Shown: one piece after another, positions 7,400 through 61,731 of the stretch
Numbering within the stretch: the first letter of the stretch is position 1
How the letters are laid out: the number at the start of each line of letters is the position of its first letter
Assembly: GCA_036337435.1 (NCBI GenBank)
Contig: JAYZEG010000062.1
Location: forward strand, 32,001-96,000
Length of the DNA stretch: 64,000 bases
Origin: Myxococcota bacterium
Lineage (GTDB): Bacteria > Myxococcota_A > Bradymonadia > UBA7976 > UBA1532
Direction of reading: 5' to 3'
Made by a program: the position numbers and the translations under genes
Notes under the pieces: generated by a model
The model's input: only the letters and a program-made list of their open reading frames with translations
Database searches by the model: none
Told to the model about the DNA's origin: nothing

Positions 7400-8384
7400 C
7401 GGGTTCCTCTGATGCCATAGACGGGGGATCGGTCCAATTTTCTTCAGCTTGCTCGATGTGCTCGCTCAGCTGGAGGGCGAATGCTTTCGCTGAATGGGTG
7501 CCCTGTTCCTGCAAAAGTCGGTTTCTGGCGGCAACCTCAATAATCAAACTGAGTGACCGTCCAGGCCTCACCGGAAGGCTGATGAACGGCACACCAACCT
7601 CCGAAAACTCAACCCGTTTCTGCTCTAATCCTAATCGATCGACTTCATTCAAATCGTCCCATTCAACGAGTTCGACGGCCAACTCAATACGTTTTCTAGC
7701 TCTCACCGCAGCCACGCCATATAGATCCTTGATATTGATGATACCAAGTCCTCTAATCTCCATGTGATGACGTGTGAGTTTGGGACTATGGCCCACAACA
7801 GTATTGCTGCCTGTTTTTTCGCAAATGACCACATCATCTGCAACCAGGCGATGGCCACGAGAAATTAACTCGAGAGCAATCTCGCTTTTTCCGATCCCGC
7901 TTTTTCCCAGTAAGAGAACACCGACGCCATGCACGTCAACCAAGGCAGCATGGCGAACTTCTCGCGGAGCATACCAAGATGACAAGACTTGATTGAGCTC
8001 ATCGGTCGCAACCGTAGACTCTTGGTCGGTTGCCAGCAAAGCGACACCAAATTCATCACAAACATTGATCATCTCTGGCGGGATGTCCTCACCAGCTGTA
8101 ATGACAATCGCTGGAATTTCTGTCTCACATAAAGTCCGAAATAACTTTGTCCGCTGCTCAGAGTCTTGCTTGGCCAGATAGCTCATTTCGGTGCGACCGA
8201 GCAGTTGAATTCGCGTCCTGACCAAGTTATCGATATGACCGATAAGGGAAATACCGACGCGTTGAACTTTCGGTGTCCCGATGGTTCTTGAAAATCCTCT
8301 CGGACCGCCCGCCATGACCCGAAAGTTTGGCAGCGTAGCTAGTTCACTGATGCTGATCTCGGTCGTTGCTCGTAATTGATTCAT
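7392..8384 (-). CDS. hprK: HPr(Ser) kinase/phosphorylase
   Basis: GKSGIGKSE Walker A, GHRLVADD, MEIRGLGII, PVRPGR. Confidence 0.95.
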   Translation of the reverse strand: MNQLRATTEISISELATLPNFRVMAGGPRGFSRTIGTPKVQRVGISLIGHIDNLVRTRIQLLGRTEMSYLAKQDSEQRTKLFRTLCETEIPAIVITAGEDIPPEMINVCDEFGVALLATDQESTVATDELNQVLSSWYAPREVRHAALVDVHGVGVLLLGKSGIGKSEIALELISRGHRLVADDVVICEKTGSNTVVGHSPKLTRHHMEIRGLGIINIKDLYGVAAVRARKRIELAVELVEWDDLNEVDRLGLEQKRVEFSEVGVPFISLPVRPGRSLSLIIEVAARNRLLQEQGTHSAKAFALQLSEHIEQAEENWTDPPSMASEEPDE

Positions 8385-8393
8385 CGAGAACTT

Positions 8394-8855
8394 TCAAAGT
8401 TTGGCATCTTCGGCCACAACGATCTGGTAAATGGCGTCGGCGTCAGGGGCGGCTAGAAGTTGCTCTCTAAAACCCGGACTTTTGAGCAGTCTCGATAGAC
8501 GCGCCAGAGCTTTCAGGTGGAGGCCTTCCGCTGCTTCTGGGATGAAAAGCGTAAAGAAAAGATGTGTTGGTTGACCGTCTAAACTATGAAAGTCGACACC
8601 CGCCTTGCTTCGCCCAATACAACCAATAATTTTGTCTACAATCTGTGTCCGGCCATGGGGCATGGCCACCCCATTACCGATTCCGGTACTCTGTAGTTTT
8701 TCACGCCGAGTCAGGGTTTCAACGAGCAGGTTTGGGTCTAGATCAGGGTTAATTTTCAGTGCCAGACCCACCAGCTCTCGAATTACGCCCGGCTTACTGG
8801 AGGCACTTAGGTCATCTTCGATGGCGCGGATGTCAAGAAAGTCGGTGATCTGCAT
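8394..8855 (-). CDS. ptsN: PTS EIIA(Ntr)-type nitrogen regulatory protein
   Basis: RE...STGIGNGVAMPH, DFHSLDGQP, HLKALARLSRLL; directly after rpoN. Confidence 0.9.
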   Translation of the reverse strand: MQITDFLDIRAIEDDLSASSKPGVIRELVGLALKINPDLDPNLLVETLTRREKLQSTGIGNGVAMPHGRTQIVDKIIGCIGRSKAGVDFHSLDGQPTHLFFTLFIPEAAEGLHLKALARLSRLLKSPGFREQLLAAPDADAIYQIVVAEDAKL

Positions 8856-8895
8856 GTTGCGATTGGTCCTTCACCATTCATCTGAATGCGGTTGG

Positions 8896-10383
8896 TTAAA
8901 ACAAGCGCTTTCGTTTAGAGCTAGGAAGAATATTCATTGCTTCTCGATATTTCGCAACGGTTCTCCTTGCAATCGTGACGCCTTCTTCTTTCAACAGATT
9001 AACGAGTTTTTGGTCAGATAAAGGTTTCTTAGGTGGTTCTGCGGCTACGAGTTGCCGAATTTTACTTTTAACGGCCTCGCTGGCCAGGTCGCCCTGCTCA
9101 CCCTGAATCGAGGAATTGAAGAAGTATTTGAGTTCGAACATCCCTTGTGGGGTGTGGACGTATTTGTTTGTCGTGACTCTGCTGACGGTGGATTCGTGCA
9201 TACCGATGTCGTCGGCGACATCCTTGAGGATCAGCGGCTTGAGACGCTCCACGCCCAAATCGAAGAAGTCCCGCTGAAACTTAATGATGCTCTCGGTCAC
9301 TTTAACAATGGTTTTCTGTCGCTGATCGATGCTGCGAATCAACCAGGCTGCCGAGTTCAGCTTTTCAGTGACATACTTCTTTGTCTCAGACGAATCTGCG
9401 CCGCGTAATGCATTTCGATAGAATTTGGAGATTCGGAGCCGGGGCATACCATCATCGTTAAGAACGGTTTTATAACCGCCGTTTTCTTCGTCTTTTCGGA
9501 TATAGATATCCGGTGTGATATATCGAGTTGTCTCCGTGGAAAATGGACGGCCTGGTCTTGGTTCAAGCTGGCAAATTAACTTGGCTGCTTCAATGACCTC
9601 ATCGAGCTCGATGCCCATCGTTCGGGCGATCACCTGGTAATTTTTCTTTTCCAGGTTGTCCATGTGGTCACTGATGACGTCTTCTACGATGGCACCAAGT
9701 TCCAGCAATCGCGCCTGAATCAGCAGACACTCGCCCAAGTCACGGGCACCGACACCGGGCGGATCGAAACCTTGGAGAAGCTCCAAGACTTCTTCCACAT
9801 ATTCGAAATCGTTTCCCGTCTCGTGGCAGACCATGGAAATGATAGCGTCGCTTGAAATTGCGTCGCCATCTTCGTCCCGACCTTTTAAATAACCCTCGTC
9901 ATTAATATTGCCGATGAGGATGATGGCCACACGTTCTTCTTGCTCGGTAAAATCGGATACCTGTAATTGCCACATTAAGTGGTCGAACAGAGTCTCGGTG
10001 CGCGTAAGCGTCGCTTCATAACCGGGCAGATCATCATCGCGTAAGCGCTGCTGCCCCGTGCTGGGCGTTGGTGATGAGTAATTTTCGAAATACGATTCCC
10101 AATCGATATCAGTTCGTTGCTCAGTAATGTTTTCTTCTACTTGGACATCGGCGGTTTGCTCGTTTTTCTCTCTCTTTTCAACATCCTGTGCCGATTCGAC
10201 CCGGGCTTCCGATGCTGTTATCTCGGAGTTTTCCTCCAGCATCGGGTTTTCCATCAACTCATCGCGAACGGCTTCGATGAGGTCCGTACGTGCTAGTTGC
10301 AATAGCTTGATCGCTTGCTGCAGCTGCGGTGTCATCACCAGTTGCTGCTGCATTTTTAGATCAAGTCTGAGGTCAAGTCCCAT
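8896..10383 (-). CDS. rpoN: RNA polymerase sigma-54 factor
   Basis: QQLVMTPQLQQAIKLLQL region I, HESTVSRVT HTH, ARRTVAKYRE RpoN box. Start taken at MGLDLRL (10383); the ORF track extends to 10401. Confidence 0.97.
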   Translation of the reverse strand: MGLDLRLDLKMQQQLVMTPQLQQAIKLLQLARTDLIEAVRDELMENPMLEENSEITASEARVESAQDVEKREKNEQTADVQVEENITEQRTDIDWESYFENYSSPTPSTGQQRLRDDDLPGYEATLTRTETLFDHLMWQLQVSDFTEQEERVAIILIGNINDEGYLKGRDEDGDAISSDAIISMVCHETGNDFEYVEEVLELLQGFDPPGVGARDLGECLLIQARLLELGAIVEDVISDHMDNLEKKNYQVIARTMGIELDEVIEAAKLICQLEPRPGRPFSTETTRYITPDIYIRKDEENGGYKTVLNDDGMPRLRISKFYRNALRGADSSETKKYVTEKLNSAAWLIRSIDQRQKTIVKVTESIIKFQRDFFDLGVERLKPLILKDVADDIGMHESTVSRVTTNKYVHTPQGMFELKYFFNSSIQGEQGDLASEAVKSKIRQLVAAEPPKKPLSDQKLVNLLKEEGVTIARRTVAKYREAMNILPSSKRKRLF

Positions 10384-10439
10384 TGAGCATCCATATTTCA
10401 ATACGTTCGACGAGCCTGACGGCTCAAGTGTACGCTACC

Positions 10440-11165
10440 TCATTTTTTCGCAGTGCCATAGTGTGTACCTAAATAGGTATCCCGAACTCGGATATTTTGT
10501 GCAACTTCGTCCGGGTCGCCACGACAGATGATGTTGCCTTCGTGGAGTATATAGATCTGGTCACAGAGGGCCAGCGATTGAGACACATCATGATCGGTTA
10601 AGAGAACAGCTGTTCCCCTCTTTGCGATCTGTCTCAAATGCATGGACACGTCCTGTACAGCGATTGGATCAAGGGCTGCAAAAGGTTCATCGGCCAAAAG
10701 TACAGTCGGTGTAACTCCGAATCCGCGCGCCAATTCAACCCGCCGTTTCTCCCCGCCGCTCAGATTCGATCCCTTCGCTTGAGCCAATTTTTCAAGACCG
10801 AATCTCTTCATGAGCTCATACCGGCGGTTTTTGCGCTCTGCCTTGGACAAACTCAACAAACCAAAATCAATATTTTCTTCCACGGTAAAGTCGAGTAGCA
10901 CCGACGGCTCTTGTGGTATGTAGGCGAGACCCAGCCGACAACGGCCCCAAAGCGGTCGCTTTTCGACTCGATGGCCCGATAAATTAATCGCTGTATTTCT
11001 CGCTGTTAATTGTCCAGTGAGTAACTTGAAAAGAGTCGTTTTACCGGCCCCATTGGGCCCTAAAACACCAACGATTTGACCTTTGTCCACATCAATGTCG
11101 ATGTGGTTGAGAACCAATCGCCGTCCATATGTGTAGTTTAGGTTTTTTGCTGAGAGTGCAGTCAT
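10440..11165 (-). CDS. lptB: LPS export ABC transporter ATPase LptB
   Basis: GPNGAGKTT, YIPQEPS, LSGGEKRRVELAR, DEPFAALDPIAV, LTDH; lptA-lptB-rpoN synteny. Confidence 0.9.
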   Translation of the reverse strand: MTALSAKNLNYTYGRRLVLNHIDIDVDKGQIVGVLGPNGAGKTTLFKLLTGQLTARNTAINLSGHRVEKRPLWGRCRLGLAYIPQEPSVLLDFTVEENIDFGLLSLSKAERKNRRYELMKRFGLEKLAQAKGSNLSGGEKRRVELARGFGVTPTVLLADEPFAALDPIAVQDVSMHLRQIAKRGTAVLLTDHDVSQSLALCDQIYILHEGNIICRGDPDEVAQNIRVRDTYLGTHYGTAKK

Positions 11166-11617
11166 CTGTTTTGCGGTTGGATTTGCTTTAATTGTTTCAA
11201 ATCAAACACACCCTTTGGTTTATCGACGACGATTCGTTCGCTGCTCAGCCAGATCGAAATACGCTGTCCGACCAGACGGCTTCCGTTCCTGGTCAAGCTT
11301 GGTTGTCCAGTAAGTACTAAGGTTTGTTGGTTTTGGTCGTAGGCCGCTCGTTTGGCTGTTGCCTTCATGTTGCCTTTGTCGACTTTGACATCGCCAATTG
11401 CATTGAGTTCGATCAATTCGCTGTCTTTGTACCGACCGGTCAGTCGTGTGCAAGATAATTTGAGAGACCCGCGGACAACCAATACATTGCCGCTGAATTC
11501 AACCTGTCCACTGCGATGTATGATTTCAACTCGATCGGCACTAATCTGAACTTTTTTCGCCGCATGAGTCGTTGGAGCCACGGGGGTAGACATAGCAATG
11601 ATCAAAAGAAGAAGCAT
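11162..11617 (-). CDS. lptA: LPS transport periplasmic protein LptA (OstA-like)
   Basis: Signal peptide; ISAD...FSGNV...A.GDV...LTGQP...G.RI beta-jellyroll pattern; overlaps the lptB start. Confidence 0.85.
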   Translation of the reverse strand: MLLLLIIAMSTPVAPTTHAAKKVQISADRVEIIHRSGQVEFSGNVLVVRGSLKLSCTRLTGRYKDSELIELNAIGDVKVDKGNMKATAKRAAYDQNQQTLVLTGQPSLTRNGSRLVGQRISIWLSSERIVVDKPKGVFDLKQLKQIQPQNR

Positions 11618-11646
11618 GGCTAGATTGTTATCGGTTTTTCAGTTGG

Positions 11647-14172
<2,526 letters not shown>

Positions 14173-24546: not shown

Positions 24547-25809
24547 TTGGCAAACAATAAGATCCTGCTCTTAGACGACGTTGAAGATGATCTGAATCGA
24601 CTCGCAGAGATCGTGGAGTCCATTGGGATATCCATCGAGAAAGCCGACTCACAACAGGCAGCATTGGTCCAATGCGAACGAGGTGTTTCCTGCGTTTTCC
24701 TCGACCCAACCGGCGAGTCCATCAATGCGACCGAACTCTATGCACAGTTAGACAAGCTTGGATTGCCATTCGTTTGTGTGAGTAAAGAAAGCAGTCGTGA
24801 AGATGTCATTAGTGCACTTCGGTCTGGTTGTTTGGACTGGTTGGACAAACCCATCGAGGCAGAGGCGGTTAGATCGGCTTTTCGCCGCATTGAAAAGCGG
24901 GCAAAAATTTCATTGGTCGAGGACAAACAGAAAAGTTCATCGACGACAGGACGAGGTTTAATTGCAGAGATTGCAAAGCGAATTCGGGATGGGAACGTCG
25001 ACTTACCTGAAGTCCCAGACATCGTAAAAGAATTGAATCACCTTTTGGTCAATTTGGACGTTGAAGCAGACGCTGTACAAGCCGTTGTTGAGCGTGACCC
25101 ATCCCTTGCGGCTCGGCTGGTTGCGACCGTGAATACTGCGACCTATGGTGGTGCCTACTGGAAAGGTCAGATTACCGACATCAAAGCTTGCGTCACGAGA
25201 CTGGGCAATCAGGCCATTCGTAATCTGGTTCAAACCGATGCCATCAAAGGCATGTTTCAGTTCCGATCACCCGCCTTTAAAGCCGTCTTTGATAAGATGT
25301 GGCGTTGCCACTTCATGAGCGCGTGTCTGGCGCGAGATGTCGCAGAAGCTGCCGAGCTTGGGGACATTGAAGAAGTGTACTTGGTTGGGTTAATCCATAA
25401 CATCGGCGAGCTTTTTCTTCTCCGGGTTTTCGGTGAGCTTTTTCAAAGGCAGAACAACCAGGTTTTGTCCATGGACGAAGTGCTCGATATGGTGCGTGAT
25501 TATCATTGCGTCTTTGGCGAAGCTTTGGTGAAAAAGTGGGACCTCGGTGACCAGTTTGCTTTTGTGACCCGCCATCATCACGATTTAAAAATGTACCAAG
25601 ATACGGAAGGTGAGAATAGTCATGTCAAACTCATGCACTGCGTGAATTTGGCCGACCAACTCGTGAATTACACAGGCGCAACCTACTACGCCAAAGCACT
25701 TCCAGCACCCAGCTTGCAAGAGAGTTATCAGGTCATCGAAGTGGATGCGGATGCCAAAGAAAAACTACGCCATCGAGCCGAGAAAATGTACGGTGAGTTG
25801 TTTGGCTAA
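24547..25809 (+). CDS. Response regulator receiver + HDOD domain protein
   Basis: KILLLDD, FLD (phospho-Asp position), WLDKP; HDOD motifs DLPEVP, ERDPSLAARLV..VN, RLG, GLIHNIG, HH. AGGAG RBS before the TTG start. Confidence 0.88.
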   Translation: MANNKILLLDDVEDDLNRLAEIVESIGISIEKADSQQAALVQCERGVSCVFLDPTGESINATELYAQLDKLGLPFVCVSKESSREDVISALRSGCLDWLDKPIEAEAVRSAFRRIEKRAKISLVEDKQKSSSTTGRGLIAEIAKRIRDGNVDLPEVPDIVKELNHLLVNLDVEADAVQAVVERDPSLAARLVATVNTATYGGAYWKGQITDIKACVTRLGNQAIRNLVQTDAIKGMFQFRSPAFKAVFDKMWRCHFMSACLARDVAEAAELGDIEEVYLVGLIHNIGELFLLRVFGELFQRQNNQVLSMDEVLDMVRDYHCVFGEALVKKWDLGDQFAFVTRHHHDLKMYQDTEGENSHVKLMHCVNLADQLVNYTGATYYAKALPAPSLQESYQVIEVDADAKEKLRHRAEKMYGELFG

Positions 25810-38291: not shown

Positions 38292-41200
38292 TCAGTGTTC
38301 GTATTTAAGGCCCACGCTGAAGCTACGTCCCACAATCCCACGCGCTTGAATGAGGTCGCCAGCACGCCGCTCCATGGCTTGATTGATTAAATTCTTGGCT
38401 TTTAATTTCAGGGCTAGGCCACCACCGAGACGCATGCCGAACACGAAGTCCAGCAGGTTCTGGGGTTGTTCGTAGATATCGGGAAGACTGCTTGTGCCGA
38501 CCTCCACAATCCGCCGTCCGGAGACATTGTAGAGGAGGTTCCATTGCCAAAGACTGCGCGGGGCCTCATAGCCCAGTTGCAGATTAATGACATAAGCAGA
38601 CTGTCCTTCCAGGGGTCTCTTGCTCGATGTCTCACACCCATCGCTCTGTCCCAGATCGACATTTGAGTCGATGACAGCCACATTGCCCGAGAAAAATGTC
38701 CTGTCCAGTCCGATAAAATCAAAGGCTTTTCGCCACGCGAGTTCGGCGCCGAGGTTGGTGGCCGATGGCGAATTTCGGAATGTCAGGGTTTTGTCTGCAC
38801 CGCAGCTGATTTTAGTTTCAATGGGGTCGGTGAAATACTTAAAGAAACCGGCGAGAGAAATGCTGTCTCGCGCGTTGAAATAATATTCCCAACGCAGGTC
38901 ATAATGGTCGATCAAGGCTCGGTTTAAATCAGGATTACCGACCACAGATTGTCGATTGGTTACATCATCGAATCGTGCCGGCGAGAGCTCGCGAAATTCT
39001 GGACGACTGACCGTTCGGCCATATCCAGCGCGCAGTTGCATTGCGTCGGTCATCACCCAGGTGGTGCTGGCCGACGGCAAGAGGTCTAGGTTTTTCAGGT
39101 TTGCGTTGACAGGCTCATCGCCTGAGAACGGCGAAAAGGTAGATACATTTTGTTCGGCACTCTCCAGCCGCAGGCCGCCCATCAGTCTTAAGCGATTCAA
39201 CAAGCCGACTTCAGAGGCCAAATAACCTGCATAGACTTTTTGTTTCGCCTTATAGTCATCGGTGGTCTGAGTGGTATTGAGGAGTCGATACTGACCTTGC
39301 TCATTGCCGATATTCTCTCGAGCAAAGAGAACATCAAGGCTTTCAACTTGACGCGTAGGCCCTTGGAATTTGTATCTGCGAGTCTCGACAAGTCGCTCTC
39401 GATTCAGTGTGGCACCACCGACCTCGACATAGGACTTGGCACGACCTGCTTTGGCTTCGCTCAGCAGATAACGTGCCGACGCCCTGACCTCGTGAGCTGT
39501 ATCGTCTAGATCGCTGAAAAAACGACGATTGCCTTCAGGCTTTGCAGACAGACCGAACGGGTCGTCTGTACCGATACTGCGGTCGTACTGGGAAATCCGT
39601 CGATTGGGCTCCAAACGGTCGGCGAGAGACAGTCCGTAGTTCCATTTCAATTCCAGATTAGGCAGGTCATGTTCGCCTCGAACTTGTTGAGTAAAAAGCT
39701 CTCGTTCTACCCACCGAAGCCGTTGGACGATGACATCTGAGCGCTCGTCGACGTTTGTGCCAACGAATTGACTGGCTTCGTCATCGGTGTTCCTCAGCAG
39801 AAGACTTGTGGTTGCGATTTTGTGGTTACGGCCAATATCCAGACCCAGTTCAAGGATGCCGCTCGCTTGGATTGTGCGAGTGAGGCTGTCGATTCGACCG
39901 CCATCGCTGACCTCCAATTGTCCAGCGCTGATTCTAAATGTGTTTCGGGTCATTTGCTGCCGGTTCCAGCCCTGGTCGTATTGGATACTCGCGACACCAC
40001 CGAATTTGATGCGGCCTTGGTCGTTGAGATAGCCACCGGAAACCGACCCACCAAAGTCCAAAGGCACCTGAGTACGATGGCTGTTGTAGGTGTCAGGAAA
40101 CGCACGACCTAACTCGGTTAACTCATCTGGCGAAAGGCAGTTCTCTCTGGTGGTGATACTGCACAGCTTGAGCGCTGTTCGGTCGGTCTCGGCTGCGACA
40201 TTGGCTGGGAGGGCTCGAGCACCCGAATCAATGCCTAAGTAATCATAGTCGCCGCCTTCATAGGTCAATCCATCAGTAAACGTGCTTCCTGTGCGACCCC
40301 CCATTGAGATGGATGCCTCTAGGAATGATGACTCTGGGAGGCGTTTTGTCCTCAGTTGGACAACCCCACCTCCAAACTCACCTGATTGGTCCGAAGAAAA
40401 GGTTTTTTGGACGACGACGCTGCTGAGGATCCCTGTTGGAAACATATCGAGGGGGACAACGCGCCGCTCCGGTTCTGGACTTGGCAAGAACATGCCGTTC
40501 AAGGTCGTACTCGAATAGCGTTCTCCCATTCCTCTGACGTAGATGTACTTACCGCCCACAATGGTCAGACCGGTCACCCGCTTGAGTGCACTGGCCGCAC
40601 TGCTGTCTCCCGTTTGTGCCATTTGCTCTGCACCGATGACATCGACCACATTACTGGTCTCGCGTCGCTCTGAGACCAAGGCGGCGACGCCCCCTTCGAT
40701 ATACGGGGCGGTGACGACAAATTCTTCCAACTCGGGGTTGGCGATTTCCATGACGATGTCATCGAGTTTTTGGGACTGGTCTTTTAAAACGTCTATTTCA
40801 TCAGCCCGAGCGTTTCGATACCCAGCTCGAATAAAGGACAGTGCGGTCTTTCCAACGCCGACGCGCAGTTTGTATTCGCCCTGACGGTTGGTTGTTGCAG
40901 TCGCATTCTGGCCCAGTACAAAGACCTGAACACCACGCAGGGGCTTGCCTGATTTTGTCACACAGCGACCCTCGATAGTGCCGAATGCGCTGATGGCCTC
41001 CTGCGCTTTGGTTTGTTGGGTGACCTTCCTCTGTTCGATGCTAACGAGCGCGTCTAGGTCGATATGTAATGTGACGATGACTTCTGTGACCTCGCCTTCC
41101 ATTGTCACCACGTTTGAAATCGATACCGAACGAGCCGGCGTGAACAACCTCAGGTTGAAATTTCCTGGTTTTTGCTCAAGAAAAATTCGGCCATCTTGGT

Positions 41201-41354
41201 TTGTTTGTCCCTTTTTTTGACCATCGATCTCGAGGGTCACACCGGGCAAGGGTGCATGGCCGCCGTCTCCATCGAATACGTAGATTCGTAGGCCTGCAGC
41301 GTGTCCTAGATTACTGAGAAGTAAAGCAGCAGTAATGAACCAAACTAATCGCAT
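38292..41354 (-). CDS. TonB-dependent outer-membrane receptor with two N-terminal carboxypeptidase-regulatory-like domains
   Basis: Signal peptide; TonB-box-like LEEFVVTA; plug ALKRVTGLT...VRGMGERY; VPLDMFP; RPEFREL; GNPDL; C-terminal GRSFSVGLKYEH. Confidence 0.93.
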   Translation of the reverse strand: MRLVWFITAALLLSNLGHAAGLRIYVFDGDGGHAPLPGVTLEIDGQKKGQTNQDGRIFLEQKPGNFNLRLFTPARSVSISNVVTMEGEVTEVIVTLHIDLDALVSIEQRKVTQQTKAQEAISAFGTIEGRCVTKSGKPLRGVQVFVLGQNATATTNRQGEYKLRVGVGKTALSFIRAGYRNARADEIDVLKDQSQKLDDIVMEIANPELEEFVVTAPYIEGGVAALVSERRETSNVVDVIGAEQMAQTGDSSAASALKRVTGLTIVGGKYIYVRGMGERYSSTTLNGMFLPSPEPERRVVPLDMFPTGILSSVVVQKTFSSDQSGEFGGGVVQLRTKRLPESSFLEASISMGGRTGSTFTDGLTYEGGDYDYLGIDSGARALPANVAAETDRTALKLCSITTRENCLSPDELTELGRAFPDTYNSHRTQVPLDFGGSVSGGYLNDQGRIKFGGVASIQYDQGWNRQQMTRNTFRISAGQLEVSDGGRIDSLTRTIQASGILELGLDIGRNHKIATTSLLLRNTDDEASQFVGTNVDERSDVIVQRLRWVERELFTQQVRGEHDLPNLELKWNYGLSLADRLEPNRRISQYDRSIGTDDPFGLSAKPEGNRRFFSDLDDTAHEVRASARYLLSEAKAGRAKSYVEVGGATLNRERLVETRRYKFQGPTRQVESLDVLFARENIGNEQGQYRLLNTTQTTDDYKAKQKVYAGYLASEVGLLNRLRLMGGLRLESAEQNVSTFSPFSGDEPVNANLKNLDLLPSASTTWVMTDAMQLRAGYGRTVSRPEFRELSPARFDDVTNRQSVVGNPDLNRALIDHYDLRWEYYFNARDSISLAGFFKYFTDPIETKISCGADKTLTFRNSPSATNLGAELAWRKAFDFIGLDRTFFSGNVAVIDSNVDLGQSDGCETSSKRPLEGQSAYVINLQLGYEAPRSLWQWNLLYNVSGRRIVEVGTSSLPDIYEQPQNLLDFVFGMRLGGGLALKLKAKNLINQAMERRAGDLIQARGIVGRSFSVGLKYEH

Positions 41355-42484
41355 AGTGTCTTGTCTCGACGGCAATCGGCCATGGCCTTGCGAAGCTTTG
41401 CCGCGCGATTGAAGAGACTCGGGTTGGTCAAGCGCTTGAGGTGACGTTCCGTCTTTTTAAAATCCCGCGTCCTGAAATAGGCGTAGGCCAGCGCATAGCG
41501 CAGCTCCTCGTCTTGCCCCAATATGTCCAAGCGAGATAGACGAGGGGCGAGCGCTGTGACCGCTTCGAAGCGTTCTAAATCAAGGAGGATTGCAAGCCTT
41601 TGTTTCAACTTCGTTGTCTGTTCCAGGATGCGACCATTCGCCGCCAATGCTTTGTGACCTGACCCAAGTTCTCGATAAATCTCGGCGGCATCCCGCGCGT
41701 ATTTCTCTTCTTTCTCAGACGCGTTTAGAAACTGTCTCGCTGCAGTTACTGGGTAACCGGCAGACAGCCATGCATGGGCTGCTTGAGCTTTGATTCGATT
41801 GTCATCTGGATAGGTGAGCATCGCTTTTTCGAGGACTCGGATGGCAGATTTAGATTCTTTGGCTTTGAGTAGTGCCTCCGCTAGAAACAAGACATCATCC
41901 GCCGTTGAATCTGCTGCTTTTACAAAATTCAATCCAACATCAGCCGCTGATTGATAAAGACCAAGTTCGATCAAGCGTTGGATATTTTTACGACCAAAAT
42001 CTCGCTGTTCCGGAAACAGCGTTTGCGCGCGTGACAGAACATGGAGAGCGCGATCGTAGTCTTTCAACGTCCATGCGCACTCACTCCGGATAATTAGGAA
42101 ATCAGGGTCAGTCCATGCTTTATCGCCAGCCGCATCCAAAGCCGCTTCGACTGTCTCACATTGGTTTAGCGCATAGGCGCATCGGGCGCGTGACAAGTGA
42201 ATATCGTCACTCGCTTTACCTAACTCGATAATCTTGTCGAAATTTTTAAGTGCCAGTTCAAAACGCTTAAGCCGCATATTTAAAACAGCAGATACGGTGT
42301 AGTAGCGGACCTGATCTAAAGTCTCATCGGTTTTATCGACCTGTTCTAGTGCAGCTGCAGCCCGTTTGAGGTACCCGTCTTGGAGCATGACTGTCGCCAA
42401 TGCCAAATGGTCGATCTCGGCCTGGTCATTGGCATGGGCAGGCAGACAGCAGAGGAGGCTGCATATGAGCAGGACAAGACGCAT
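41345..42484 (-). CDS. Exported TPR protein (occupies the TtpD position of a TonB2-type operon)
   Basis: Signal peptide ending AHA; TPR repeats; lies directly after tonB. Confidence 0.8.
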   Translation of the reverse strand: MRLVLLICSLLCCLPAHANDQAEIDHLALATVMLQDGYLKRAAAALEQVDKTDETLDQVRYYTVSAVLNMRLKRFELALKNFDKIIELGKASDDIHLSRARCAYALNQCETVEAALDAAGDKAWTDPDFLIIRSECAWTLKDYDRALHVLSRAQTLFPEQRDFGRKNIQRLIELGLYQSAADVGLNFVKAADSTADDVLFLAEALLKAKESKSAIRVLEKAMLTYPDDNRIKAQAAHAWLSAGYPVTAARQFLNASEKEEKYARDAAEIYRELGSGHKALAANGRILEQTTKLKQRLAILLDLERFEAVTALAPRLSRLDILGQDEELRYALAYAYFRTRDFKKTERHLKRLTNPSLFNRAAKLRKAMADCRRDKTLCD

Positions 42485-42486
42485 CC

Positions 42487-43134
42487 TTAGGCTCCGCGGC
42501 TCAATTTAAAGCGGATGGTTTGCTCGACCATGACGGTCTGGGCTTTACCTTTGTACATCCCGGGTCGGAACGTCCAACGCTCGATGGCTTGCCGCGCGGC
42601 TTCTTCAAAGACGCCCGCTGGTTTTGAGCGGATGACTTTAGCACTTTGAATCTCGCCATGTGAGCCGATGATCAGAGAGAATGAAACAAACCCTGTTACA
42701 CCGTCTTTCCTTGCCTGCATTGGATACTTTGGACTCACCTTTCGGGTGGCCTTAGGTGGCTCATCGACGGTCGCACTGGTCATCAATAGGTTTTTGCCAC
42801 CCGTCTTTTGTAGAAGCGAATCTCCATTGTCATCACTGGTTCGACCGAATCGAGTCTCATTGCCTAAATCAACGCCCGACAAAGCACTTGAGAGTTTCGG
42901 CTGTGGGGCCATACGTCTTACTGTACGCGGCTTCGCCCGTCGAGGCTTTGGTCTAGCCGCCTTCTTTTTCGGCTTTGGCTTTATTTTCTTAATCTCGACA
43001 TTGGCGGTCACCCGTCTCTCTTCTTTCTTGGGTGGTTGCGTGTATCGATTCATCACGATCATTAAGGTGAGGACCAAACCAACACCGAAGACCATGATGA
43101 CCAAAGAGCCAAGAATTTGCGTCAGACGATTCAT
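42487..43134 (-). CDS. tonB: Energy transducer TonB
   Basis: N-terminal TM helix, Lys/Pro-rich linker, PKYPMQAR..GV.G.V, FEEAA..A...W.FRP. Confidence 0.92.
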   Translation of the reverse strand: MNRLTQILGSLVIMVFGVGLVLTLMIVMNRYTQPPKKEERRVTANVEIKKIKPKPKKKAARPKPRRAKPRTVRRMAPQPKLSSALSGVDLGNETRFGRTSDDNGDSLLQKTGGKNLLMTSATVDEPPKATRKVSPKYPMQARKDGVTGFVSFSLIIGSHGEIQSAKVIRSKPAGVFEEAARQAIERWTFRPGMYKGKAQTVMVEQTIRFKLSRGA

Positions 43135-43541
43135 CAGGTCGCCTCACGTTCCGTGGCGACAGCGACATCTTTGGCTCCAGCCAGTCTGCATTGGTCGATG
43201 ACGGTCAGCAGCTGCTGTGCTTTGACACCCGCATCGGTAATCACCAGAACGGGTCGATCTTTGGCACCACGGAGCAACTCTCTGACGGTGCCTTGCAAGA
43301 GCCAAGGGCGTACTGCTCGACCTGAGACATAGGTGTCTCCTCGTCGGTCGATGGTCACCCGAATCGCCTTTGTGGATGCAGGTTTTGCGCTGGACGCAGA
43401 GGGTCGGTCCAGCTCCACTTGAGCATCCTTGACGAAGGTGGTGGTAACCATAAAGAAAATGAGAAGGATGAAGACCATATCGATGAGTGGCGATATGTCA
43501 ACGCCGGCTTCCTCAGCCTGTCTTCGTCGTCGATTCATCAT
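43134..43541 (-). CDS. exbD: Biopolymer transport protein ExbD
   Basis: DISPLIDMVFILLIFFMVTTTF. Confidence 0.93.
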   Translation of the reverse strand: MMNRRRRQAEEAGVDISPLIDMVFILLIFFMVTTTFVKDAQVELDRPSASSAKPASTKAIRVTIDRRGDTYVSGRAVRPWLLQGTVRELLRGAKDRPVLVITDAGVKAQQLLTVIDQCRLAGAKDVAVATEREAT

Positions 43542-43542
43542 G

Positions 43543-44139
43543 TCAATGTCCTCCTCTATTAAGACATGCCACAGACACCAGTTGGTCTAGGTCGTTTTCA
43601 AGTTGAAATTGCTTCCGGTCCAACAAGCGACCGACAATGACGCCTGGAATAGCCACAACCAAGCCCATCTGCGTTGTCAAAAGAGCTTGTGAAATGCCGC
43701 CCGCAACACCACCCGACGCGGCGAATAGGGCTTGATTACCGAGGGAGTCGAAGGTCTCAATCATCCCCGAAACGGTCCCTAATAGACCCGCTAATGGGGC
43801 GATGATGACAATGCTTTTGACCAGCACTCGATTGCGGTTAAGAGAACGTTTGAGCGGATAAAGGGCCTCGTAGAAGGCAGCCGATTGATCCGCTTCATCT
43901 AAGGTCTTGTCCTCGACCTTTTTCACCGATGCCCAAGCTTGGCCCAGTACACCCCTTTTGGGGACTGAACCCTGGCTGATTCTGAGTCCGAAGTCGCCTC
44001 GGAATCCACGGCGCAGGAAGAGCGCTCGGTCGCCTAAGCCGTACCAAAGAACAAAGGTACAGATAATGAGGGGCGGCATGACGAAGCCGCCTTCAGCCAT
44101 ATACGCGCTCAGTTCGATTAAGAGTAAGTCCACAGACAT
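43543..44139 (-). CDS. exbB: MotA/TolQ/ExbB proton channel ExbB
   Basis: APLAGLLGTVSGMIETF; GGISQALLTTQMGLVVAIP. Confidence 0.9.
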   Translation of the reverse strand: MSVDLLLIELSAYMAEGGFVMPPLIICTFVLWYGLGDRALFLRRGFRGDFGLRISQGSVPKRGVLGQAWASVKKVEDKTLDEADQSAAFYEALYPLKRSLNRNRVLVKSIVIIAPLAGLLGTVSGMIETFDSLGNQALFAASGGVAGGISQALLTTQMGLVVAIPGVIVGRLLDRKQFQLENDLDQLVSVACLNRGGH

Positions 44140-44142
44140 GAC

Positions 44143-45564
44143 TTATGCAGGCTTTCCTGTCGCTGTCAGCGCACCGTCCCAATTGGCGTTTGTCTCAGCC
44201 GACTGAGATGCGCGCTTTCGGCAGCGAACCGCATTGATTAAGCGCAGTGCACCAAATTCCAGGTTCCCCTTCATCTTGGTTGCCCAGCCGTTGAGAATGT
44301 TGCCGAAAAGAAGTGTCGGAATCGCGACACACAACCCAAGTTCAGTGGTCACAAGTGCTTCGGAAATACCGCCACTTAAAAGCTTTGGGTTACCCGTGCC
44401 GAATTCAGTGATGACATCGAAGGTCGAGATCATGCCTGTCACCGTTCCGAGAAGACCCAGCAGTGGAGCGACGGCAGCGATTACGAGAATGATTGAGCCA
44501 AAGCGGTCAAGGTAGCCTTCCTCGACGACCATTCGCTCACTAAACACGCGCTCCAAGTCGTCCCTGTCTTCTTTTAGAACAGGCGTCAATGCGGCTAAAA
44601 TTCGCGCGCCCGCGCCTCGCTTGGTCTCGCAAAACTTGGAGGCTTCCATCAGGTCACCTCGGTAGACAACATCCTCAATTCGATCCCAGAGACGCTCTGT
44701 GTTTGTCCCCGCGAAGACCAGCAGAAGCGCACGAATGACGAGCAGTAACATGGCCAAAATACCCAGGCCGACGATCACCCAGGCGATCACACCACCGCTG
44801 TTAATGATTTCGAGTACTGTCTTTTCCTTTGGGGGCTCAAAGTTCTTTGTCGTGTTCTCAAATAAGAACAACTTGATTTGGGCTTCTTGTCGACCTTCGA
44901 TGAGCGCCCTGGCTGTATCAGCGCCTTGGGGCGGGTCGAGTTTGAAATGGCCATTACCTGCTGGCGTCAGCGCACCCGCCTGGCCACCGGCAACGCCGTA
45001 GACGGCCACTTTTCCGACTTTCAACAGTGTGCCGTTGACTTGCTTGCCATCGGATAGGAAAAACTCGCCGGGCTCGCGTCTGACTTGGCCGCCTTGTTCG
45101 AGAGACTTAAACGATAAGTCAAAACCGGTGAGGATCTGACCGGCCTCTCGCTTGAGTCTATCTTCGGCACTCTCCCCGTCGACCGCCCCCATCTTGGGCT
45201 TCCAGACAACGCCTTCAGACTCAAGTCCGCGACTGATTTGGTCTCCTAAACCAGTCAGGGCTTCTTCACTTTCACCCAGTGCATCCACTTGTCTTTCTAA
45301 ATCCACCATGGCATCGGCCATGGCGTCGGACTCGGTGGTTTGCTGAACGATTTGGCGCTGAAGTCCGGCTAAAACAACCTTGCTTCGGCCGGCTTCTTGT
45401 CTCAGAGCACGCTTTGCTTTTTGAAGCCTTTTCTCCAAGACGGCCTGTTCGGATTCAAGAAATGCAAACTCTTTTTTAAATGCGTCACGAAGTGTCCCAC
45501 TCTCTGGCTTTGCCATGAGGAGAGTCGGCGTCATTAGACACGCCAATAAGATTGATAAACGCAT
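44143..45564 (-). CDS. Large ExbB-family protein with a periplasmic coiled-coil N-terminus (TtpC-like)
   Basis: Signal peptide, coiled coil, then SGG..AW.I and APLLGLLGTVTGMISTF...GGISEALVTTELGL. Confidence 0.88.
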   Translation of the reverse strand: MRLSILLACLMTPTLLMAKPESGTLRDAFKKEFAFLESEQAVLEKRLQKAKRALRQEAGRSKVVLAGLQRQIVQQTTESDAMADAMVDLERQVDALGESEEALTGLGDQISRGLESEGVVWKPKMGAVDGESAEDRLKREAGQILTGFDLSFKSLEQGGQVRREPGEFFLSDGKQVNGTLLKVGKVAVYGVAGGQAGALTPAGNGHFKLDPPQGADTARALIEGRQEAQIKLFLFENTTKNFEPPKEKTVLEIINSGGVIAWVIVGLGILAMLLLVIRALLLVFAGTNTERLWDRIEDVVYRGDLMEASKFCETKRGAGARILAALTPVLKEDRDDLERVFSERMVVEEGYLDRFGSIILVIAAVAPLLGLLGTVTGMISTFDVITEFGTGNPKLLSGGISEALVTTELGLCVAIPTLLFGNILNGWATKMKGNLEFGALRLINAVRCRKRASQSAETNANWDGALTATGKPA

Positions 45565-46356
45565 TTAACGTCCCTCCGGCATGGGCAGCATATTGGGGAG
45601 GTCGAATAGACCCACTCGAATTTGTTTTTTAAAGGAGTCGAAGAGGTGGTTGATTTGAAGACGACCGCGCTCTTCATCGACAAAGGTTGTCGTCCAGCCT
45701 GAATCGGACCGTGTTACCAAACCCACTCGGCCTGTACCTGTTCGAAAGTAAAGACCGATGGTTCCGATTCGCACCACATCGACCATGAGCTTTTGGCCAT
45801 CTACGGTGACGGTGTCTCTGTACAACCCCGTCTCTTTAGCCATTTGACGTTCATCTTCTATCAATGACCAAAGCCGAGTGAGTGCCGATCTTGGGCTGAG
45901 AAGTCCACCACTGAGTTTCTGGGTAATCAAGTCGACTTCGGCCAATCGTTCGCCTTGTCTAAATGGAAGGCTTGTCTCGACATATCTTTTGAGTGCAGCA
46001 GCATTTTTCTCAAATATGGGCAAAAGGGCCGCATCGCGTTCTTTAGACGCTTCGATGAGTACTTTCTTTCTCTGCATGGCCTCTGTGAGCTGTGCGTGAC
46101 GCACGGATTCACGTTGTAATTCGGCGTCTAATTGCGCTTTTTGGTTCTCAAATGCGCGTTGTTTGGCACGTCGTTCACGCTTCTTGTTTTCTAACTCTTC
46201 TGTGAGTTCTTCGACCTTTGAGCGCTTCTCGACCAAGGACTTGATGAGGGCGTCCGCATCTTTAACAGTGGCCTTAGAATAGGCGGCCATTGGGCTCATA
46301 CACAGCAGGGCTGCGCTTATGAAAATTTGTGTATGACTCGTCATCATAGTCTCCAT
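45565..46356 (-). CDS. DUF3450 family periplasmic protein (TtpB-like)
   Basis: Signal peptide, coiled coil, SLPFRQGER, VRIGTIGLYFRT, FDLP; lies before the TtpC-like gene. Confidence 0.85.
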   Translation of the reverse strand: METMMTSHTQIFISAALLCMSPMAAYSKATVKDADALIKSLVEKRSKVEELTEELENKKRERRAKQRAFENQKAQLDAELQRESVRHAQLTEAMQRKKVLIEASKERDAALLPIFEKNAAALKRYVETSLPFRQGERLAEVDLITQKLSGGLLSPRSALTRLWSLIEDERQMAKETGLYRDTVTVDGQKLMVDVVRIGTIGLYFRTGTGRVGLVTRSDSGWTTTFVDEERGRLQINHLFDSFKKQIRVGLFDLPNMLPMPEGR

Positions 46357-58699: not shown

Positions 58700-59182
58700 T
58701 TGCGTTTGGTACACATCATTTTGCTCGCTGTTTTGGCGTCCAGTTTCGGCTGTTCCTCAGAATTAGATGACAGCAATATACCGGACTATCGAGACCCTAA
58801 ATCCGAGTTTGGACCCCCGGTGATGATGACTCAGGATGCGCCCAAAGGAGACGCACCGAATACCCCTCCTAAGATTGTAAGAGTCCGGTGGCAGTCGGCT
58901 GAAGATTGCAGCACCGACACCATCTCCCCGGTTCAGTTCGCCATCGAGGTCGACGGGGCCAGTGACCAAGCGACCGAGTTGATTTTTGACGGTGCGGTCA
59001 GTGGGTGTGATTCAGAGGCCAACCGCTTTGGCTCTATGATTAATGGACCTCGGGTTCGACTCAGCTGCCATCACGTTTCAGTCCATCGAGCCTTCTTGAC
59101 GGTTGTTGACCAGCAGGGTCGGGGCGATAGTCTGGCATTCCAATTTGGCCCCTGCAGTCGCGGCGTTATCGACACGCACTAG
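58700..59182 (+). CDS. Hypothetical lipoprotein
   Basis: Lipobox SSFGC, Pro-rich linker, NTPP.I Ig-like start. Confidence 0.65.
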   Translation: MRLVHIILLAVLASSFGCSSELDDSNIPDYRDPKSEFGPPVMMTQDAPKGDAPNTPPKIVRVRWQSAEDCSTDTISPVQFAIEVDGASDQATELIFDGAVSGCDSEANRFGSMINGPRVRLSCHHVSVHRAFLTVVDQQGRGDSLAFQFGPCSRGVIDTH

Positions 59183-59194
59183 ACGCCGGGCTTC

Positions 59195-59665
59195 CTACAT
59201 CCACGGACACCTTGCGTCATTTTCAATGGTAATGCGCGTCGGCAGCAGGGGAAGTACGCAAGAACCAACCTGATTGATTCGCCCTGATTTACTGCCACCG
59301 AACCTCATTTTTCGAGTGGTAATTGACACATCGATTTCCACATTGTTTCCCAGACTTTTTAGGCATTCACGAATTTTAATGAGTGCTTTTGGTGCTTTAT
59401 CATCCAGGTCGGCCTTGCCCACATGGATAGACTCGATGGTGCCTGGGCATTCACTGTATTTTAAAGCAACGTATTTTTCGCCTGGGTCGTCCTTAACCGG
59501 TGAGTCAACAATGGTTGCTTTCTTGTTCAGGTCATTGAATTCATAAATTAACGAACTGCCCGATAGCCAGCTCAAAAAATAGGTCGTCACCGTGATCAAG
59601 ACGGTCACTGAGAGAAGAAATTTAAAGACCGGGAATGGTCTCGCAGCTGGTTGGCTGTCGGTCAT
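59195..59665 (-). CDS. Hypothetical membrane-anchored protein
   Basis: N-terminal TM helix (FLLSVTVLITVTTYFLSWL) and four Cys in the soluble part. Confidence 0.65.
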   Translation of the reverse strand: MTDSQPAARPFPVFKFLLSVTVLITVTTYFLSWLSGSSLIYEFNDLNKKATIVDSPVKDDPGEKYVALKYSECPGTIESIHVGKADLDDKAPKALIKIRECLKSLGNNVEIDVSITTRKMRFGGSKSGRINQVGSCVLPLLPTRITIENDARCPWM

Positions 59666-59910
59666 CGAAACACCTGTTGGTTATTTGGATTGGGGTCATG
59701 TACCTCAGTCCAAGCAGTGTGACTTAAATTGGTCGAGAAGTCACCTCACAATCACGTCGGCCAACATGAGCATCAGACGCAGAGCGCAAGGAGTGTCCAT
59801 CGACATTCGCCCTAAATGGCCGGCCTCTCAATCTGAATTAGAAAGCCGTTAATTTTTTTCATTCGTGCCCCAAGCATGTCATTCTATCCATCCAAAAGGT
59901 AGGGTCAGCC

Positions 59911-61731
59911 ATGCGTCCAATCGAGGGTCAGTCATATACTGAAGACACAAAATATGCGCTCAGTACCAGTGCATTATTTCACGGACTCTCCGACGAGCAA
60001 TTAGCAGATGTCGCCAAGCACGGCTCACTTTTCCGATATACGGTCGGTCAACATCTGGCCAGGCAGGGCGAACCGTCAGACGCATTTGATATTTTCGTCA
60101 AAGGCGCAGCTGTCGTTCAGCTCGACGATTCGAAGAGTGGGAGCACCGTTGAATTGGCCCGACTCTCACCACCCGATTCCGTAGGCGAGATGGGTGTTTT
60201 GCTTGAAACACCTCGATCGGCCAGTGTCTTGGCTATCGACGATGAGGTGATCGTCATTCGGTTCACAAAAACCCAGTTTTCGAGAATGATTCAGTCGCTC
60301 CCATTCTTCGGTTTGGTGTTGTCTCGAACTTTGGCCGCGCGGCTCCATGCTGTCAATCGCCAAGTCTCATTACCGGAGCACCTCTTCGAGTCTGACCAAC
60401 TTGATGAAGACCTATTTCGCCTTCTGCCAGCCGACTTCATTAGCCGTCATCGGGTTCTGCCTGTGTCCCTTGATCACCATCATGTGACCATTGGGTTCGT
60501 CGATCAGCCAACGGATACGTTATTGCAAAGAATCCAACGTTTGTTGACGGGCATGGTTGTTCGACCGGTTAGCCTCACAGCAGAGCAATTTGATGAGACA
60601 GCACCTAAATTTGGCGTTCGTCCGCAAAGCACGATTATGGCGTCGCAGTCCATGAACACGCAGACTGTTTTCCCCCTCGATTCAATCCTGCGGCAAGTGG
60701 TCGCTGAGGGGGCGTCAGACCTGCACATCTCTGCCAACCAGGTTCCTCGATGGCGCATCGATGGCGCGCTCATTCCCATCCCTGGACACACCGGTCTCAC
60801 ATCCAGTGCGATCGCATCGGCAATGAACGACATTATGCCTTTATCTCGGCAAAAAGAATTCGCTCAGACCAATGATACAGATTTCGCATATCAGCTCGGC
60901 GAACAAGCCCGATTTCGAGTCAATGTATTTCGAGATATTCATGGGGTGAGTGCGGTACTGAGACATATTCCGAGCCTCATCAGAACGCCCGCGCAGCTTG
61001 GGCTCCCAGAGATTATTTCGAGTTTTTGCAAAATGCCCCATGGCTTAATTCTGGTCACGGGTCCAACAGGCAGTGGCAAATCCACGACGTTGGCTGCGAT
61101 GATCGACTCCATAAATCGCGAGCGTGCAGAGCACATCATTACCCTCGAAGACCCGGTTGAGTTTGTCCACAAGTCAAGTCAATCCATGGTCAATCAGCGT
61201 GAAGTTGGGTCTCATACAGACTCCTTCGCTCGCGCACTTCGGGCCGCGCTTCGTGAAGACCCAGATGTCGTTCTTGTTGGAGAGTTGAGAGATTTAGAAA
61301 CCATTTCTCTGGCCATTGAGACAGCTCAGACAGGTCATCTCGTTTTTGCCACCTTGCATACGTCGACCGCCATTGGGACCATAGACCGAATCGTTGGTAT
61401 GTTTCCGCCCGACCAACAAGGTCAGACTCGCTTAAGTTTGGCTGAGGTCTTGAAGGGTGTGGTTGCACAGACTTTGCTGCCCAGACGAACGGGCGGGCGT
61501 GTTGCGGCCTTTGAAATCCTGGTCAGCAGCCCTGCGGTGGCCAATCTGATACGAGAAGCAAAATCTGCCCAATTGGTCAGCACGATGGAAGTGGGCCGCA
61601 AAGCGGGCAACTCACTGCTCAATGATGAATTGGTTCGATTGGTGAACTCGGGCCTTGTCGAGATGGACGTCGCTCATCGACACGCCATTCATAAAGACGA
61701 CTTTTTGAAACGCTTGAAGCGTGTGAAGTAG
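59911..61731 (+). CDS. pilT: Type IV pilus retraction ATPase PilT fused to N-terminal cyclic-nucleotide-binding and T2SSE_N-like domains
   Basis: cNMP: LF.GL, QGE, VGEMGVL...PRSASV. T2SSE_N-like: LLPADF..RHRVLPV...VTIGFVD. PilT: ASDLHI, RFRVN, GPTGSGKST, TLEDPVE, LREDPDVVLVGELRD, GHLVFATLHT, AVANLIRE. Confidence 0.9.
   Translation: MRPIEGQSYTEDTKYALSTSALFHGLSDEQLADVAKHGSLFRYTVGQHLARQGEPSDAFDIFVKGAAVVQLDDSKSGSTVELARLSPPDSVGEMGVLLETPRSASVLAIDDEVIVIRFTKTQFSRMIQSLPFFGLVLSRTLAARLHAVNRQVSLPEHLFESDQLDEDLFRLLPADFISRHRVLPVSLDHHHVTIGFVDQPTDTLLQRIQRLLTGMVVRPVSLTAEQFDETAPKFGVRPQSTIMASQSMNTQTVFPLDSILRQVVAEGASDLHISANQVPRWRIDGALIPIPGHTGLTSSAIASAMNDIMPLSRQKEFAQTNDTDFAYQLGEQARFRVNVFRDIHGVSAVLRHIPSLIRTPAQLGLPEIISSFCKMPHGLILVTGPTGSGKSTTLAAMIDSINRERAEHIITLEDPVEFVHKSSQSMVNQREVGSHTDSFARALRAALREDPDVVLVGELRDLETISLAIETAQTGHLVFATLHTSTAIGTIDRIVGMFPPDQQGQTRLSLAEVLKGVVAQTLLPRRTGGRVAAFEILVSSPAVANLIREAKSAQLVSTMEVGRKAGNSLLNDELVRLVNSGLVEMDVAHRHAIHKDDFLKRLKRVK

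Follow-up and report, generated by a model that had tools for sequence, protein, structure and literature searches.

A widespread subfamily of PilT-like pilus motor ATPases carrying a cyclic-nucleotide-binding domain and an MshEN_C-type domain

In regard to the control of pilus motors by second messengers, the described systems act on the extension ATPase, through cyclic di-GMP (c-di-GMP) recognized by an MshEN domain or through FimX-PilZ-PilB, and cyclic AMP (cAMP) acts on pili through transcription, by way of Vfr and SYCRP1. To our knowledge, the on/off switching of PilT is poorly understood. We analyzed a stretch of 64,000 nucleotides from a Myxococcota bacterium (GenBank assembly GCA_036337435.1, contig JAYZEG010000062.1, positions 32,001 to 96,000; hereafter the window, whose own numbering is used throughout), which contains a gene for a 606-aa protein joining a cyclic-nucleotide-binding (CNB) domain and a small MshEN_C-type alpha/beta domain to a PilT-type ATPase core. 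That this architecture is a genuine and widespread PilT-like subfamily can be taken as practically certain. Its parts are familiar: the fusions form an old and apparently never studied subfamily of PilT-like hexameric pilus motor ATPases, spread widely among uncultured bacteria, whose members sit in public databases under no more than generic names, either "PilT/PilU family type 4a pilus ATPase" or "twitching motility protein PilT". A search of the full-text literature, with subscription journals and supplements outside its reach, found no paper on a cyclic mononucleotide (cNMP)-binding domain on a PilT-type ATPase, and the accessible parts of the PilT-paralog papers on M. xanthus (PMC13584747) and G. 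sulfurreducens (PMC5065972) make no mention of such a domain.

The original prediction had divided the open reading frame (ORF) into a cNMP domain, a T2SSE_N-like domain and PilT, and this division agrees with the Pfam families cNMP_binding, MshEN and T2SSE, which all score over their gathering thresholds. Conservation was read from a family set composed of the 120 best matches in a collection of 5.8 billion proteins (45-90% identity, 582-717 aa), and confidence of structure models is given as the predicted local distance difference test (pLDDT). The features of the gene are the following:

59911 to 61731, plus strand: the whole ORF of the CNB, MshEN_C and PilT-type ATPase fusion (606 aa plus stop, ATG start, uninterrupted frame)
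59896 to 59904, plus strand: purine-rich ribosome-binding-like stretch AAGGTAGGG, read directly, 6 nt before the ATG
59953 to 60369, plus strand: cyclic-nucleotide-binding domain of the CRP/PKA-R type, including the long C-helix 131-150 (residues about 15-153)
60184 to 60222, plus strand: phosphate-binding cassette GEMGVLLETPRSA, GE...PRSA (residues 92-104)
60388 to 60615, plus strand: MshEN_C / GspE-N1-like alpha/beta domain with the conserved LLPxxFxxRHRVLP...G (residues 160-235)
60616 to 60675, plus strand: low-confidence, poorly conserved linker (residues 236-255; pLDDT 41-72 in the whole model, 57-62 in the model of residues 1-255)
60676 to 61728, plus strand: PilT-type ATPase core with an N-terminal PAS-like and a RecA-like C-terminal domain (residues 256-606)
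61060 to 61086, plus strand: Walker A, GPTGSGKST (residues 384-392), every position conserved in 120/120 members
61534 to 61557, plus strand: AVANLIRE, a PilT-type AIRNLIRE-like motif (residues 542-549)

As judged from sequence, the C-terminal 350 residues represent a catalytically complete core of the PilT type, and not of the PilB/GspE type. T2SSE covers residues 256-524 (E 3.3e-51), and the NCBIfam model TIGR01420 (pilT_fam) matches residues 256-596 with 434.2 bits against a cut-off of 319.1, extending over model positions 2-342 of 343, whereas the GspE equivalogs score 177-179 bits against cut-offs of 617-630, the PilB equivalog 166.9 bits against 675.65, and TfpB 142.1 against 850. The Walker A, Asp box (residues 411-418), Walker B (452-461), His box (474-484) and AVANLIRE stretch reported previously for the ORF were all located, and the key residues of the four boxes are invariant in all 120 family members. 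AVANLIRE, which we take, in name and role, to be the PilT-type AIRNLIRE motif, is conserved to a varying degree (A542 in 108, N545 in 90, L546 in 116, I547 in 106, R548 in 120 and E549 in 110 of the 120 proteins). Modeled at full length with AlphaFold2 on a 63-row alignment, the protein has a mean pLDDT of 87, with residues 240-250 as its sole poorly predicted stretch. When compared by Foldseek, the core superposes on PilT4 of G. metallireducens (6ojx_A) with a TM-score (TMt) of 0.96 and a root-mean-square deviation (rmsd) of 1.5 over 353 columns at 46% identity; PilT structures lead the matches, PilU comes next, and DotB, GspE and PilB follow after these.

The sensor part is equally recognizable. 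Pfam cNMP_binding (PF00027) matches residues 42-128 (E 2.1e-13, 50.5 bits against a cut-off of 27.5), and the closest solved relatives by sequence are led by the CNB-B domain of PKA RI-alpha (E 1.7e-13), whose GEIALLMNRPRAA is aligned to the cassette GEMGVLLETPRSA, in agreement with the intact phosphate-binding cassette that had been noticed in the letters of the gene. Residues 1-255, modeled separately (pLDDT 91.7), give the same picture: residues 19-153 match the T. thermophilus CAP structure 4ev0_D with Z 19.4 and rmsd 1.5 over 133 residues, and further fold matches comprise CRP, PKA, PKG, HCN and related cNMP domains. Within the alignment of the 120 members, G92 is found in 120, E93 in 115, A104 in 118 and R102 in 94, and position 103 is occupied by S in 48, T in 45, G in 15 and A in 8 of them (S/T in 93/120). 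The fusion protein of the window keeps the full G-E...R-[ST]-A cassette, and its genome has the capacity for such signaling, with 7 class III cyclase domains and 15 cNMP-binding domains. In some relatives the cassette arginine is replaced, by Tyr in 21/120 and otherwise in 5/120, and because of this ligand binding would not be universal in the family. The variability of position 103 also means that specificity for cAMP or cyclic GMP (cGMP) cannot be read from the sequence. Alternatively, the domain could be blind to both nucleotides, acting in dimerization or as a scaffold via its C-helix, or sensing a small ligand of a different kind, which is common among CRP/FNR-type domains. The tyrosine at position 102 in those 21 relatives would fit such a domain, as would the presence of HcpR and DNR, CRP/FNR members with other ligands, among the best fold matches. 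Nevertheless, we consider it unlikely, given the complete cassette in the window copy and in 94/120 relatives, the PKA and PKG cNMP sites as the closest sequence matches, and the seven cyclase domains of the genome.

Between the sensor and the motor lies the domain that had been described as T2SSE_N. Positions 9-78 of the 90 in the Pfam MshEN profile (PF05157) match residues 160-229 (E 1.4e-10; 41.4 bits, where 23.1 are required), and BLASTP aligns fusion residues 163-235 with residues 68-138 of the PilB of the same genome (E 4e-5), which represent the stretch past the N-terminal bundle of PilB. Residues 155-235, preceded by the cNMP barrel, are predicted to fold as helix-strand-strand-helix-strand-helix, and their predicted structure contains no four-helix bundle (MshEN_N). 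According to PMC5013675, binding of c-di-GMP by MshEN involves two 24-residue motifs which form the 53-residue four-helix bundle MshEN_N; the strict and the relaxed patterns given there were found in 0/120 of the closest family members, the window protein included. Because of the alignment to PilB residues 68-138 and the lack of the motif in all 120 members, the protein holds the MshEN_C / GspE-N1-like half alone, and the cNMP barrel takes the position of the c-di-GMP bundle of PilB and MshE. The T2SSE_N assignment therefore holds for the match at residues 160-229, but only as the C-terminal alpha/beta subdomain. The Pfam label "MshEN" could by itself suggest a c-di-GMP receptor as in MshE and PilB, a role that is very improbable here, since the motif is missing from every member in either form, no bundle is predicted, and the aligned part of PilB begins past the bundle.

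The same small domain is the most conserved N-terminal part of the protein, with P173, P184 and G195 present in 120/120 and R179, H180 and R181 in 113, 112 and 115 of the 120 members. As this conservation exceeds that of the sensor, it argues for a constrained interaction surface. Complex prediction of fusion residues 150-240 with the PilM of the same genome (L120:1477-2526) returned 0.00 in two runs, which speaks neither for nor against binding.

In regard to the distribution of the architecture, cNMP_binding, MshEN and T2SSE are common to all 120 best homologs. An additional PDZ domain is present in 31/120, and in the two proteins checked (P0075 and P0045) it is C-terminal, at residues about 602-680. 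Where source names are given, they are Myxococcales, Bradymonadia, Myxococcota, Archangium, Desulfobacterales and Kiritimatiellae. A search with the 255-aa N-terminal module alone in 1.84 billion clusters of 50% identity detected 34 representatives with E<=1e-30, a number that rises to 823 for E<=1e-10, the weaker matches including plain cNMP domains. At E<=1e-15, the module occurs in 73/401 genomes sampled from the phylum (54/339 good-quality genomes, 51/254 genera). The PilT-type fusion itself cannot be more frequent than 73/401 and may be rarer, as fusions of the PilB type and cNMP proteins without a motor account for part of these matches. A pattern search of genome contigs with the ATPase core gave mostly canonical PilT, and 2/80 loci were fusions (L008 of Riflebacteria and L009 of Myxococcales). 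Long N-terminal extensions of ORFs on L011, L012, L013, L015, L040, L050 and L086 have no Pfam domain and were rejected as over-long calls in GC-rich DNA.

The possibility that assembly or gene calling joined a CRP-like gene to a pilT gene, named in the original prediction among the ways in which its reading could fail, has next to no probability. The frame is single and uninterrupted, the three domains occur together in 120/120 top homologs, the module and a PilT-type core lie within one ORF in 22/22 other genomes inspected, and runs from 13 studies of marine or seawater metagenomes contain near-identical DNA. A chimera was excluded on the basis of the homologs and the genomes.

The relationships of the cores were inspected in a quick IQ-TREE search (LG+C20+F+G4, with Shimodaira-Hasegawa approximate likelihood ratio test, SH-aLRT) of 82 hand-picked sequences, comprising 32 fusions, 25 canonical PilT proteins (about 345-370 aa, named contigs), 17 PilU-like second genes of pilT tandems, a 490-aa PilT paralog from the genome of the window and 7 proteins of the PilB/GspE type; any ORF whose long N-terminal extension was doubtful was omitted. 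PilB/GspE is split from everything else at 100 SH-aLRT, with the fusions on the PilT side, so the clustering with PilB/GspE that would have contradicted the PilT assignment does not occur. Together with TIGR01420, this split upholds the assignment to the PilT side, but not a place among canonical PilT: a clade with 97 SH-aLRT unites canonical PilT with the PilU-like proteins and the paralog of 490 aa, and all 32 fusions remain outside of it. With PilB/GspE as the root, the fusions come out as a basal grade, and the starred branches are compatible with one origin. On sequence grounds, the fusion core is a separate lineage on the PilT side and not a decorated canonical PilT. Three fusions from the same family as the window (L091, L092 and L097, of genomes G096, G146 and G141) have fast-evolving cores, with end branches of 1.2-1.45 and core scores of 231-263, compared to 370-450 for most other fusions.

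The N-terminal module is also found on other motors. Among the 150 module representatives listed, 44 have both N-terminal domains on a PilT-type core, 15 have CNB-MshEN_C on a PilB/GspE-type core, 19 have the module without a recognized core (mostly short and probably fragments), 1 is an N-truncated PilT-type protein, and 71 are other cNMP proteins. In a tree of 58 modules, a branch with 99 SH-aLRT parts the 38 on PilT-type cores from the 20 on PilB-type cores, and this separation on a single branch indicates that one ancient fusion or transfer probably took place, and not repeated shuffling. The PilB/GspE-type group includes proteins of 894-909 aa with a doubled module (P0219, P0220, P0228 and P0252), in which CNB-MshEN_C occurs twice in an N-terminal tandem, as checked with Pfam for two of them. 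Another protein, P0132 (568 aa), carries the module without a recognizable T2SSE-type ATPase core behind it. In genome G282 (L117, G282:C8:68000-87999, about 4378-11763), a CNB-MshEN-PilB-type ATPase (667 aa) adjoins a CNB-MshEN-PilT-type ATPase (639 aa), and the same cluster includes a pilin-like N_methyl protein as well as cNMP-binding proteins of 435 and 214 aa; it may represent a filament system with cNMP sensors on both motors.

A bolder reading of these trees is that the fusions are a third, ancient motor branch beside PilT and PilU, which would have kept a PilB-type docking domain and replaced the c-di-GMP bundle with a cAMP/cGMP sensor, and which, as the sole PilT in some Myxococcota families, would have its retraction switched post-translationally. 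From their position at the base of PilT and PilU in the PilB/GspE-rooted tree, the fusions could even preserve an intermediate on the way from extension to retraction motors. We mention this reading as a speculation that is rather improbable in its entirety.

It is also of importance whether the fusion is an extra motor or the main PilT of its carriers. PilT-family proteins are present at E<=1e-80 in 368/401 sampled genomes of the phylum. The genome of the window has a canonical pilB-pilT-pilC block and pilMNO on one contig (C37) and a type II secretion system on another (C20), and because this canonical block is present, the fusion looks like an extra, accessory PilT-type motor there, as had been proposed previously. 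The 490-aa protein mentioned above is the third PilT paralog of the genome (C48, L003:1096-2568; TIGR01420 406 bits, over the cut-off); its N-terminus is extended by about 135 residues in which Pfam recognizes no domain, and its branch in the tree of the cores is very long. The accessory role does not seem to hold in family f16, however. In 5/5 of its genomes that were examined (94-100% complete), the fusion ORF is the sole match over the TIGR01420 cut-off, with 446-458 bits, and the runner-up matches reach 200-259 bits or, in one of the five, are absent; each of these genomes has a full-length PilM. The N-terminal module is found in 25/29 genomes of f16. The fusion thus looks like the main PilT of f16, one of the Myxococcota families, apart from that of the window, in which it appears to have this role.

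The model that we propose is that of a cNMP-gated PilT-like motor which docks via its MshEN_C-type domain. In such a model, cAMP or cGMP produced by the class III cyclases of the genome would bind the cassette, and binding would move the C-helix (residues 131-150) by analogy with CRP, PKA-R and Epac. Motion of the C-helix would reposition the adjacent MshEN_C-type domain, the sensor and MshEN_C part being connected to the motor by a presumably flexible linker. As an outcome, the motor could engage the base of the type IVa pilus (T4aP), at the PilM/PilC platform, in competition with PilB, or an autoinhibited hexamer could be released. Pilus retraction would thereby be switched directly by a cyclic mononucleotide, bypassing transcription, and in the genome of the window the fusion would act beside canonical PilT. 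In our estimation, the chances of the whole model being right or wrong are about even.

Several results weigh against it. The replaced cassette arginine of some relatives and the unreadable nucleotide specificity concern the input. On the side of the output, retraction activity of the fusion would be an extrapolation, because the quick tree search placed its core outside the clade of canonical PilT and PilU (97 SH-aLRT). Furthermore, the fusion gene is an orphan, whose neighbors (Hsp20, nitroreductase, glycyl-tRNA synthetase) are conserved within the genus only. The surroundings of 20 loci were scanned for 88 of the 133 candidate ORFs, the 45 omitted ones being the outermost, the longest and those antisense and overlapping the fusion gene, and pilus genes were found near the fusion at one locus, that of G282. 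In the same scan, one locus has a dCache-HAMP-cyclase near the fusion, and another has an adjoining PAS-GGDEF-EAL protein. Expression of the gene is hinted at weakly by short contigs from metatranscriptome libraries of three studies, which are 151-242 nt long within the ORF and carry 0-2 mismatches (59938-60088, 60295-60445, 60459-60735 and 60798-61039; the rest of the ORF is uncovered, which proves nothing), and these contigs could stem from carried-over DNA.

The output could also be different altogether. The fusion could drive something besides T4aP retraction, such as a type IV filament or secretion system of a separate kind under the control of cNMP, or it could support extension, in which case the PilT label would denote ancestry only. 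Such a function would go well with the position of the core outside canonical PilT and PilU, with the retained N-domain of the extension-ATPase type, and with the presence of the CNB-MshEN_C module on PilB/GspE-type cores in 15/150 listed representatives. The cluster of G282, in which PilB-type and PilT-type fusions are grouped with a pilin-like N_methyl protein and two more cNMP-binding proteins, would fit it as well. To go by the title of one paper (PMC9815625), PilT is said to promote extension of the MSHA pilus as well as its retraction. On the other hand, the core passes the TIGR01420 cut-off, keeps the AIRNLIRE-type motif and is 46% identical to PilT4 at TMt 0.96, genes for a private filament are absent at most of the scanned loci, and in 5/5 f16 genomes the fusion is the sole PilT-family protein over the cut-off beside a full PilM. 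A function apart from retraction thus appears to us the weaker explanation, with a probability well below that of the cNMP-gated motor.

In the window itself, no pilus-related Pfam family was detected among the 40 other ORFs scanned, and genome-wide searches for PilT, PilM and T2SSF gave the fusion gene as the sole match within the window, in accordance with the earlier remark that it has no other pil genes. The gene is bordered on its 5′ side, at a distance of 245 bp, by a divergent gene for a 156-aa hypothetical protein, and on its 3′ side by a convergent gene for glycyl-tRNA synthetase (GlyRS); four flanking ORFs are RNR, nitroreductase, Hsp20 and GlyRS according to the Pfam matches of their orthologs. 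The order Hsp20, nitroreductase, two small hypotheticals and GlyRS is kept solely in two genomes of the same genus. A scan for promoters and terminators near the fusion gene gave nothing above the shuffle expectation. Two small proteins without a Pfam family are encoded upstream of the fusion gene, a lipoprotein-like one of 160 aa (58700-59179, plus strand) and the 156-aa one, which has an N-terminal hydrophobic stretch (59198-59665, minus strand), and both are retained in the two same-genus genomes only.

Other parts of the window contain several further arrangements. The rpoN neighborhood (4130-12492, minus strand) holds mannose-type IID/IIB/IIA components of the phosphotransferase system, RapZ, HPr kinase, an EIIA-Ntr-type protein and sigma-54, as well as an LptB-like ABC ATPase, LptA and a lipid A acyltransferase. 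A fusion of a response-regulator receiver with an HDOD domain is found at 24547-25806 (plus strand), and upstream of it are two very large proteins of the secreted type, one with TSP3 repeats (1215 aa) and one with PKD repeats (1522 aa). A single run at 38295-46356 (minus strand) comprises a TonB-dependent receptor, a TPR protein, TonB, ExbD, two ExbB/MotA-type proteins and DUF3450.

If true, the presence of a cNMP sensor within a PilT-type motor would provide a direct and fast input on the retraction side. As a large family which looks like the sole PilT in some lineages, the fusions could serve as a natural system for studying the control of a PilT hexamer by a sensor at its N-terminus, and they are suited for asking whether motors of the PilT and PilB types are competitors for a single docking site. 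Should the sensor be inert, the finding shrinks to a variant of domain architecture.

Compared with known systems, the fusion is closest to PilT in its motor. The 350-aa core has the same fold as PilT of G. metallireducens (PilT4, 6ojx/6ojy), P. aeruginosa (3jvv) and A. aeolicus (2ewv), with TMt of 0.90-0.96 and 44-47% identity, and it likewise passes TIGR01420 and contains the four ATPase boxes and the AIRNLIRE-type motif. It differs from PilT in the 255 additional N-terminal residues, which form two folded domains, and in the position of the fused cores outside the clade of canonical and PilU-like proteins. The order of parts is that of PilB and MshE, in which a second-messenger sensor is also followed by a homologous MshEN_C-type alpha/beta domain and then by the motor. 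However, the sensor of the fusion is a cNMP beta-barrel and theirs is a c-di-GMP four-helix bundle, whose motif occurs in 0/120 fusions, and the motor is PilT-type instead of PilB-type. MshEN_C is presumably the same kind of small alpha/beta N-domain as the N1 of GspE (bound to the cytoplasmic domain of GspL in 4pht), which we take to tether the secretion ATPase to an actin-like partner in the platform; GspE itself is clearly distinct, as the fusion stays far under the cut-offs of the GspE equivalogs. With CRP/CAP and the regulatory subunits of PKA and PKG, the fusion has the beta-barrel, the phosphate-binding cassette and the C-helix in common, but its output is a pilus motor ATPase, whereas theirs is a DNA-binding or kinase-inhibiting module. 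Finally, in the fusion and in the PilB-type ATPases with CNB-MshEN_C alike, the sensor is built into the pilus motor, and it is the class of the motor that differs.

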